This document shows positions 21,757-21,843 of a stretch of DNA of 64,000 nt, piece after piece. Source of the stretch: a virus. Lineage: Duplodnaviria; Heunggongvirae; Uroviricota; Caudoviricetes. The notes beneath the pieces were generated by a model that had not been told where the DNA came from, made no database searches, and saw nothing but the letters and a program-made list of their open reading frames with translations. Position 1 is the first letter of the stretch. Every line of letters starts with the position of its first letter. Made by a program: the position numbers and the translations under genes. Where the stretch lies: IMG/VR virus record IMGVR_UViG_2778261087_000003, one strand, 5' to 3'.

Positions 21757-21843
21757 TTACCCATGTGCGACGATGCCGCCAAAAGTGATAGAGAACAGCC
21801 AGAAATAGATCGCGGCCATAATGATTTTGAATGCCGTGTTCAT
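21757..21843 (-). CDS. Possible small hydrophobic peptide (28 aa, MNTAFKIIMAAIYFWLFSITFGGIVAHG)
   Basis: AGGAG RBS 8 nt upstream of ATG; below the ORF-track cutoff. Confidence 0.25.
   Translation of the reverse strand: MNTAFKIIMAAIYFWLFSITFGGIVAHG

Follow-up and report, generated by a model that had tools for sequence, protein, structure and literature searches.

Bacteria encode single-pass inner-membrane proteins of fewer than 50 amino acids (aa), among them AcrZ, MgtS, KdpF, and CydX, and these are often missed by annotation. The type I toxins Hok, Ibs, TisB, and Ldr are likewise short, very hydrophobic peptides, and in regulation of the MifM type a membrane-anchored regulatory nascent peptide is encoded upstream of a coupled gene. 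Phage P1 is a reference phage, in daily use for transduction and Cre/lox work. Here we describe an open reading frame (ORF) of 28 codons, termed the micro-ORF, in a stretch of 64,000 nucleotides (nt) from the IMG/VR virus record IMGVR_UViG_2778261087_000003; this whole stretch is called the window. Judged by its sequence, the window is a P1-family phage-plasmid. The locus is 97–100% identical to P1, P7, RCS47, SJ46, and other P1-type phage-plasmids, and it occurs in 868 plasmids of PLSDB and, among 5,426 complete E. coli genomes, in 885. The reference P1 record (AF234172/NC_005856) carries the same locus, with 98.6–98.7% identical DNA, and shares the operator, the predicted promoters, pap, and pmgT. 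However, where we propose a conserved 28-codon gene and a 5′ stem-loop, the P1 record lists no coding sequence between the operator and pmgT, and the P7 record is annotated in the same way over this interval.

Our analysis suggests that the micro-ORF genuinely encodes a tiny single-pass membrane protein and is the first cistron of a C1-repressed early unit at the operator Op88/OpmgT, a reading to which we assign a probability of about 0.6. The micro-ORF is very probably a real gene, since the same frame is kept in five diverged P1-like lineages. The best-supported reading of the sequence data is a C1-repressed early single-pass membrane micro-protein, the translation of which may also hand ribosomes to the next gene. 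The ORF is located as follows:

21757..21843, minus strand: micro-ORF of 28 codons, with ATG at 21843–21841 and TAA at 21759–21757, encoding MNTAFKIIMAAIYFWLFSITFGGIVAHG.

The original prediction, made from the letters of the window, had placed an almost entirely hydrophobic 28-aa ORF at these positions, behind a strong AGGAG ribosome-binding site (RBS). The coordinates and strand are right, and the Shine–Dalgarno (SD) sequence AGGAG was found at 21856–21852, with a spacer of 8 nt to the ATG. The description of the peptide also holds: the grand average of hydropathy (GRAVY) of MNTAFKIIMAAIYFWLFSITFGGIVAHG is 1.30, and its best 19-residue segment, residues 7–25, has a mean Kyte–Doolittle value of 2.10. 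The same hydrophobic segment has mean values of 2.04–2.36 in the other lineages. Residues ~7–25 are predicted to form one transmembrane helix, long enough for a single membrane span. The micro-ORF thus appears to combine what is expected of a small single-pass membrane protein, that is, a short ORF with a plausible RBS and start, one segment of bilayer length, and a coding signature. Conservation of the frame in related genomes had been named as a check, and the frame, the SD-linked start, and the N-terminal hydrophobic segment are all kept in the five lineages. The idea of a genuine, overlooked micro-protein is therefore supported by frame conservation together with coding-type substitution at 49–74% DNA identity.

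Since close relatives were too similar to be informative, diverged relatives were sought. The five lineages compared were the P1-type, to which the window belongs, Cronobacter phage JK004, Salmonella phage-plasmids, and two metagenomic types, represented by the Logan contigs L092–L094 and the IMG/VR contig L095. The four non-P1 lineages share the layout of the window, in which the operator is followed by a stem-loop, the sequence (C)CAATCA(A)TCAyCGGAGC, an ATG, and a homologous hydrophobic ORF of 46–53 aa. SD and ATG are 8 nt apart in the P1-type but only 5 nt apart in the other lineages. JK004, whose DNA matches the window at the operator only, carries a pmgS-like gene, a pap-like gene, the operator, a stem-loop of other sequence, CCAATCAATCACCGGAGC, and the ATG of a 53-codon ORF, MHLIFKLAITAFYAWMLTVVITSFKPDANMKASRYLGNLSASYDCDQQGDDSL, whose stop overlaps the next start as ATGA. 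The ORF of the Salmonella phage-plasmids has 46 aa and begins MHTVFKLAMAAFYIWIFTIVFTGIAK; in L089–L091 it occupies about 1907–2049 and is followed by a winged-helix-like gene at 2052–2371. The ORF of L092–L094 has 53 aa and begins MQVLIKLAVTAFFVWLFTIAVTSFKPDANMRAS, and that of L095 has 48 aa and begins MNTAFKLAMAAFYFWIFCIAFNGLVK. The Salmonella lineage (L089–L091) lacks pap, and its operator–hairpin–micro-ORF cassette directly follows the pmgS-like gene; thus, the cassette is not tied to pap.

Over codons 2–25, DNA identity between lineages is 49–74% (53–74% without the window–JK004 pair), yet the ORF frame stays open throughout. Stops interrupt frame +1 everywhere except in the window's P1-type; frame +2 is interrupted in JK004, L092/L094, L095, and the full-length Salmonella ORF. 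The ratio of nonsynonymous to synonymous differences (pN/pS) was calculated from Nei–Gojobori counts for 14 between-lineage pairs. For the ORF frame, 12 of these pairs gave values of 0.15–0.47; within the Salmonella lineage, the value over codons 2–25 was 0.00 (2 synonymous and 0 nonsynonymous changes). The other two frames gave 0.45–2.9 in most comparisons. An excess of synonymous changes, with binomial P values, was seen in five contrasts:

Window and L095: pN/pS 0.26, P = 0.002.
Window and Salmonella: pN/pS 0.33–0.36, P = 0.013 (window–Sal89).
JK004 and L092: pN/pS 0.33, P = 0.001.
L092 and L094: pN/pS 0.21, P = 0.001.
Sal89 and Sal91: pN/pS 0.15, P = 0.006.

Changes were also in excess at third positions in three contrasts (P = 0.007–0.018).

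These results bear on the simplest alternative, that a chance ORF lies in a non-coding leader and owes its conservation to constraints at the DNA or RNA level only. The curated P1 annotation leaves the stretch non-coding, no homologues were found beyond P1-like elements, and ORFs of this size are common by chance; the length of the micro-ORF alone is not beyond chance, since 60 ORFs of at least 20 aa are listed in the surrounding 3 kb. However, codon-periodic substitution, a synonymous excess in most pairs, and stops in the other frames of several lineages are not expected from DNA or RNA constraints, and the same applies to a conserved SD–ATG register with conservative hydrophobic replacements at 49–74% nucleotide identity. 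The micro-ORF stands above chance because of its SD, its composition, and, above all, the conservation of its frame across lineages, and we consider a chance ORF very improbable.

At the level of the peptide, residues M1, K6, A11, and W15 are invariant across lineages, F5, F12, Y13, and F17 are nearly so, and positions 10, 18, 22, and 23 hold a small or polar residue in every lineage. The part common to all lineages is the helix only, with its invariant K6, A11, and W15. The peptide had no significant match among PHROGs, Pfam, NCBIfam, PADLOC, or PDB sequences. Two word-indexed searches covering 5.8 billion proteins returned members of P1-like lineages only, and an exhaustive profile search of 1.84 billion representatives gave 12 matches, all within P1-like lineages. 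As far as these databases reach, the micro-ORF family is confined to P1-like phage-plasmids and appears to be a new, unnamed family of a known kind, the phage small membrane proteins. The 90%-identity cluster that contains the 28-aa peptide also holds a 710-aa protein of Phytophthora cactorum, presumably because very short sequences cluster spuriously.

Within the P1-type, 139 full-length copies were collected from IMG/VR, GenBank phages, and metagenomes. The 28-codon frame is intact in all 139, and the peptide is identical in 108; in one further copy the ORF is broken by an insertion. Among 85 P1-type loci, the number of distinct changes per site was ~0.6 in the operator/promoter region (21898–21942) versus ~0.2 in the hairpin, the SD region, and the ORF (21757–21893). 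Such high variation of the operator/promoter region would not be expected where a repressor binds, and it may reflect noise from singletons or assembly.

An 84-bp piece of the locus (21753–21836) is ~99% identical in hundreds of IncF plasmids, and it was rejected as independent conservation. Since the IncF copies are cut at codon 3 by IS1 and adjoin a convergent Type I hsdR gene, we regard them as a hitch-hiking P1-type remnant. The remnant is a piece of a P1-type element with an hsd module (4001–4084 in both L004 and L005), and this similarity, to R124/3 and EcoDXXI, is already mentioned in the P1 record. The IncF plasmids with this remnant also carry a SMODS/S-4TM (CBASS-like) pair nearby.

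The sequence that follows the micro-ORF varies. The interval from pmgT to humD has been described as “variable region 8” of P1-like phage-plasmids (PMC9603915), and the micro-ORF marks the left edge of this region, since the sequence diverges just after its stop (at 21753 in the window; L006, L017, and L041 were compared downstream of the ORF). In about a third of the P1-type copies (~46 of 139), a hairpin and a convergent hsdR gene of a Type I restriction module come next, and in others a PmgT/ASCH-like gene or a P7 upf86.8-type gene. The downstream genes of the P1-type and of the other lineages are unrelated, and the winged-helix gene of the other lineages, searched for in the window and in P1, was absent from both. 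The cassette of operator, promoter, hairpin, SD, and ORF is the sole constant piece at the junction across lineages. The stop and the next start are separated by 9 nt in the P1-type and by 4 nt in the Salmonella lineage; they overlap as ATGA in JK004 and L092/L094 and as TGATG in L095. Wherever a co-directional gene follows, the 3′ end of the micro-ORF contains its SD or immediately precedes it.

Several observations speak against a functional membrane protein. The 20 distinct changes found within the P1-type comprise 7 synonymous and 13 nonsynonymous ones (7:10 in an earlier set of 85 copies) and show no third-position excess. The ratio of 7:13 is indistinguishable from neutrality (P = 0.15–0.30), and the variants include the non-conservative changes G22D, G23D, L16Q, and G28R. 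The tail found at the C terminus in the other lineages is lacking from the P1-type ORF, which ends at a recombination junction. In some relatives the frame continues past this point into unrelated sequence, and individual contigs hold frameshifted or truncated versions; all such variants are rare in the protein databases. The contrast between reading frames is not uniform, since frame +1 scores at or below the ORF frame in window–JK004 (0.45), L095–JK004 (0.36), and L095–L092 (0.45), and the ORF frame gives no signal of selection in window–JK004 (0.89) and L095–JK004 (0.78), both of which are near saturation. Conserved or small residues do not cluster significantly on one face of the helix (P = 0.17). 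A literature search found no ribosome profiling or proteomics of P1. No strong phenotype is expected either, because the neighbours pap, pmgT, pmgU, and pmgV are dispensable; all four were non-essential for plaque formation in a CRISPR interference screen (PMC10695390).

Part of this evidence would be accounted for if the family is real and the 28-aa copy of the P1-type is a C-terminally truncated relic, the tail of which was cut off when pmgT/ASCH or hsd modules recombined in. The stump would then persist because the elements are young and closely related, or as the carrier of the SD and leader for downstream genes. We regard this as a plausible, if unlikely, alternative. It agrees with the lack of the 20–28-residue tail found in the four other lineages and with the position of the stop, since the point where P1-type elements frequently lose homology, 21753, is 4 nt past it. 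The read-through tails, the few frameshifts, and the 7:13 ratio with its non-conservative changes point in the same direction. However, the ORF is intact in 139 of 139 copies, 108 of them with an identical peptide, and per-site variation in the ORF, SD, and hairpin is about a third of that in the operator/promoter region of the same genomes. The window–L095 and window–Salmonella contrasts, which include the P1-type branch, still give pN/pS values of 0.26–0.36. The 7:13 ratio, moreover, is also indistinguishable from that of pap (79:72), used as a control from the same genomes (Fisher P = 0.16). This control shows that, at so shallow a depth, selection on 81 sites would go undetected, and the ratio within the P1-type is therefore uninformative. 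The retained part is exactly the helix that is conserved in all lineages, and the ~46 copies followed by a hairpin and convergent hsdR also keep the ORF intact.

The junction with the next gene raises another possibility. Translational coupling by proximity is plausible, because stop and start are 9 nt or 4 nt apart or overlap, and a stop near or overlapping the downstream start, as would be expected of a coupling leader, is apparent from the sequence of the lineages with a co-directional gene. The micro-ORF might be mainly a cis-acting leader or upstream ORF, in which the act of translation rather than the peptide would matter, either for coupling or for shielding the early transcript from Rho or RNase. 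The constantly short distances, the placement of the next SD in or after the 3′ end of the ORF, and a cassette that alone is common to all lineages in front of completely different cargo are consistent with this role. However, a leader of this kind should always precede a co-directional gene, and its peptide should drift freely. Instead, about a third of the P1-type copies are intact before a hairpin and a convergent gene, and the amino acids of the helix are conserved while synonymous sites are saturated, which coupling alone does not need. Folding of the downstream RBS in two lineages gave ill-defined structures (frequency of the minimum free energy structure <0.4%), with a centroid that keeps the 5′ hairpin only; in neither lineage was a stable structure defined that would mask or sequester this RBS. 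We consider a mainly cis-acting role unlikely. A role of the peptide and a role in cis are not mutually exclusive, and a membrane micro-protein that also passes ribosomes to the next gene would combine them.

The proposed early expression of this micro-protein relates to the surrounding features of the window, which are as follows:

21942..22448, minus strand: pap, a gene for a HAD-type polynucleotide kinase/phosphatase-like protein of 168 aa, annotated as Pap in P1 and P7.
21926..21942, minus strand: C1 operator Op88/OpmgT, 17 bp, ATTGCTCTAATAAATAT, at the position of the protein_bind feature of AF234172.
21941–21936 (−35, TTGCTC) and 21918–21913 (−10, TAAAAC), minus strand: predicted promoter P2pmgT, by coordinate transfer from AF234172.
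21926–21921 (−35, TTGATT) and 21903–21898 (−10, GAAAAT), minus strand: predicted promoter P1pmgT, by coordinate transfer from AF234172.
21871..21893, minus strand: stem-loop CATGCCGC-aaggc-GCGGCATG with a perfect 8-bp stem, near the predicted 5′ end of the transcript.
21844..21891, minus strand: upstream in-frame extension of a 44-aa database model with ATG at 21891, probably untranslated.
21868–21857 and 21856–21852, minus strand: conserved motif CCAATCAATCAC and the SD AGGAG, 8 nt before the ATG.
21022..21756, minus strand: PmgT/ASCH-like gene of 241 aa with its SD, GGGGGA at 21756–21751 and ATG at 21747 (phrog_874, E = 2e-92).

The pap product matches PHROG 415, polynucleotide kinase (E = 5.5e-56). 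The pap gene is the last of a conserved upstream block, and its stop (21944–21942) abuts the operator. A C1 operator upstream of the ORF had been part of the original prediction, and the 17-bp site indeed stands at the curated OpmgT/Op88 position. AF234172 labels this position “monovalent C1-controlled operator OpmgT; former Op88”, the P7 record labels it “Op(hea)”, and the P1 record cites the earlier Op88 entries M25414 and X98146. The operator of the window differs from that of P1 by one base, and the operator is present in all five lineages, as ATTGCTCTAATAAATAT or as ATTGTTCTAATAAAT. The two sigma-70 promoters are curated predictions that overlap the operator (21898..21941), not mapped starts. 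Our own consensus promoter scan did not list them; its sole match, at 21970–21941, was weaker. A 17-bp asymmetric operator that overlaps a promoter, as expected of a C1-controlled early unit, thus appears to be present at this locus. An A/T-rich stretch lies between the operator and the stem-loop.

On the downstream side, the PmgT/ASCH-like gene opens the variable region. It had been placed 10 nt from the micro-ORF, which is correct to within one base: the gap between the stop and the next ATG, at 21747, is 9 bases (21756–21748, GGGGGATGC). The name “ASCH-like” agrees with RefSeq, in which homologues of the 241-aa PmgT-like protein are called “ASCH domain-containing protein”, but the Pfam ASCH match of the window's protein is sub-threshold (E = 0.18).

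The leader stem-loop is conserved in structure, not in sequence, across the five lineages; its counterparts lie at 2056–2076 in L088, at 1858–1880 in L089, and at about 2448–2474 in L092, and it is also found in L095. Compensatory double changes occur at 5 of 9 pairs, none of 500 shuffles reached the covariation score, and slid registers collapse. Within lineage 4 alone, one stem pair switches from G-C to A-U. Predicted folds of the leader contain a stable hairpin in every lineage and leave the SD and ATG unpaired. In the P1-type, the hairpin begins near the +1 predicted for P1pmgT, at about 21891–21895, a position that would fit a 5′-terminal stabilising hairpin. Just 5′ of the SD, the motif CCAATCAATCAC (21857–21868) is nearly invariant across lineages and more conserved than the ORF; it might act as a translation enhancer or a binding site.

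On the plus strand, the hairpin is terminator-like, since a T-run follows it there, in P1-type copies only. This plus-strand hairpin prompted the idea of a type I toxin–antitoxin-like locus, in which the mRNA of a hydrophobic toxin would be opposed by a plus-strand antisense RNA ending at the hairpin (21871–21903). A small and hydrophobic peptide would suit this arrangement, and so would a hairpin and T-run resembling an intrinsic terminator just past the 5′ end of the ORF. However, no promoter-like site was found on the plus strand in 21500–22100, and the T-run is absent from JK004, the Salmonella lineage, and L092/L094 though the hairpin is kept. No Rfam family reached its threshold, the best being GcvB with 20 bits versus a gathering score of 42, and no toxin family of Pfam, NCBIfam, or PADLOC matched the peptide at E ≤ 10. 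In addition, a repressor operator already controls expression. The idea was rejected, and we consider it extremely improbable.

The observations on operator, leader, and peptide can be combined into a model for a C1-repressed early membrane micro-protein. In a lysogen, C1 bound at 21942–21926 would block the overlapping sigma-70 promoter or promoters. Upon induction or infection, the transcript would start near the conserved 5′ stem-loop, and ribosomes would load at the exposed AGGAG and ATG and synthesize a peptide of ~28 aa, with residues 7–25 as one transmembrane helix. Terminating ribosomes could then reinitiate on a co-directional next gene; they would be well placed to do so, since the next SD and ATG are 0–10 nt from the stop of the micro-ORF. 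We infer the timing of transcription from the curated operator and promoter annotation of P1; translation, membrane insertion, and coupling are likewise inferences. More speculatively, the peptide may act in the inner membrane through its helix, on a membrane partner of the host or phage or on the membrane itself, early in lytic growth.

A further question concerns the start codon. Automated 44-aa models named “membrane protein” or “hypothetical protein” (AMR60016.1 of SJ46, a “membrane protein”; WP_001312275.1 in RefSeq; A0A1B0VBV0 in UniProt) share the frame and stop of the micro-ORF but start 16 codons upstream of its ATG, with no functional or comparative analysis attached. The 44-aa model is present on at least 1000 contigs, and a literature search found no paper characterising it. 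The upstream ATG at 21891 has no SD; it is part of the hairpin stem and coincides with or precedes the predicted +1. None of the four non-P1 lineages has an ATG, GTG, or TTG in frame between the nearest upstream stop and the SD-linked ATG. The 44-aa start was therefore rejected on comparative grounds, and the 28-aa model is preferred. The 44-aa models probably start too early, since only the SD-linked ATG is conserved; the 28-aa start chosen in the original prediction fits the comparative data better. The record of JK004 begins the orthologue at an internal ATG, giving 38 aa instead of 53 (L088 2108–2269). The 46-aa ORF is unlisted in the Salmonella plasmid records examined, and in L089 the coupled 105-aa winged-helix-like gene is also unlisted, although the PLSDB gene tables may be incomplete.

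Our study suggests that the early gene set of P1 is incomplete, in that a conserved gene is absent from the curated reference and mis-started in automated models. The curated P1 genome is the annotation template for hundreds of P1-like phage-plasmids carrying resistance genes. Situated at the edge of a cargo hotspot and putatively leading an early operon under repressor control, the micro-ORF offers a concrete candidate for a phage small membrane protein, and its 5′ stem-loop a candidate RNA element. Should the peptide prove active on the host envelope, the short list of phage micro-proteins with an established role would grow by one; otherwise, the correction of the annotation would still be useful.

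A wider interpretation can be put forward, although we think it quite unlikely in full. The cassette of operator, promoter, hairpin, SD, and micro-ORF could be a “launch pad” at the edge of the cargo hotspot, variable region 8. The peptide would then be an early effector of the lytic switch, for example in the exclusion of superinfecting phages, the priming of the membrane, or the modulation of a host membrane complex. The 3′ end would serve as a joint for recombination and coupling, by which unrelated cargo (PmgT/ASCH, winged-helix, Type I restriction) is plugged into C1-controlled expression.

Like Hok, Ibs, TisB, and Ldr, the micro-ORF encodes a short, very hydrophobic peptide on a mobile element; in contrast to them, it has no conserved antisense RNA signals and no family match, and its control would be exerted by a protein repressor. 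The ORFs of four lineages resemble the MifM type in having an N-terminal transmembrane segment and a hydrophilic tail and in ending at or overlapping the next start. In contrast, a tail is lacking in the P1-type, folding defined no structure that would mask the downstream RBS, and the genes that follow have no link to membrane insertion and vary by lineage. Unlike AcrZ, MgtS, KdpF, and CydX, the micro-ORF product resembles no curated family in sequence, is encoded by a phage under putative repressor control, and has no known partner protein. However, the micro-ORF product shares with these proteins its size class, its one hydrophobic helix, and its short polar N-terminus.

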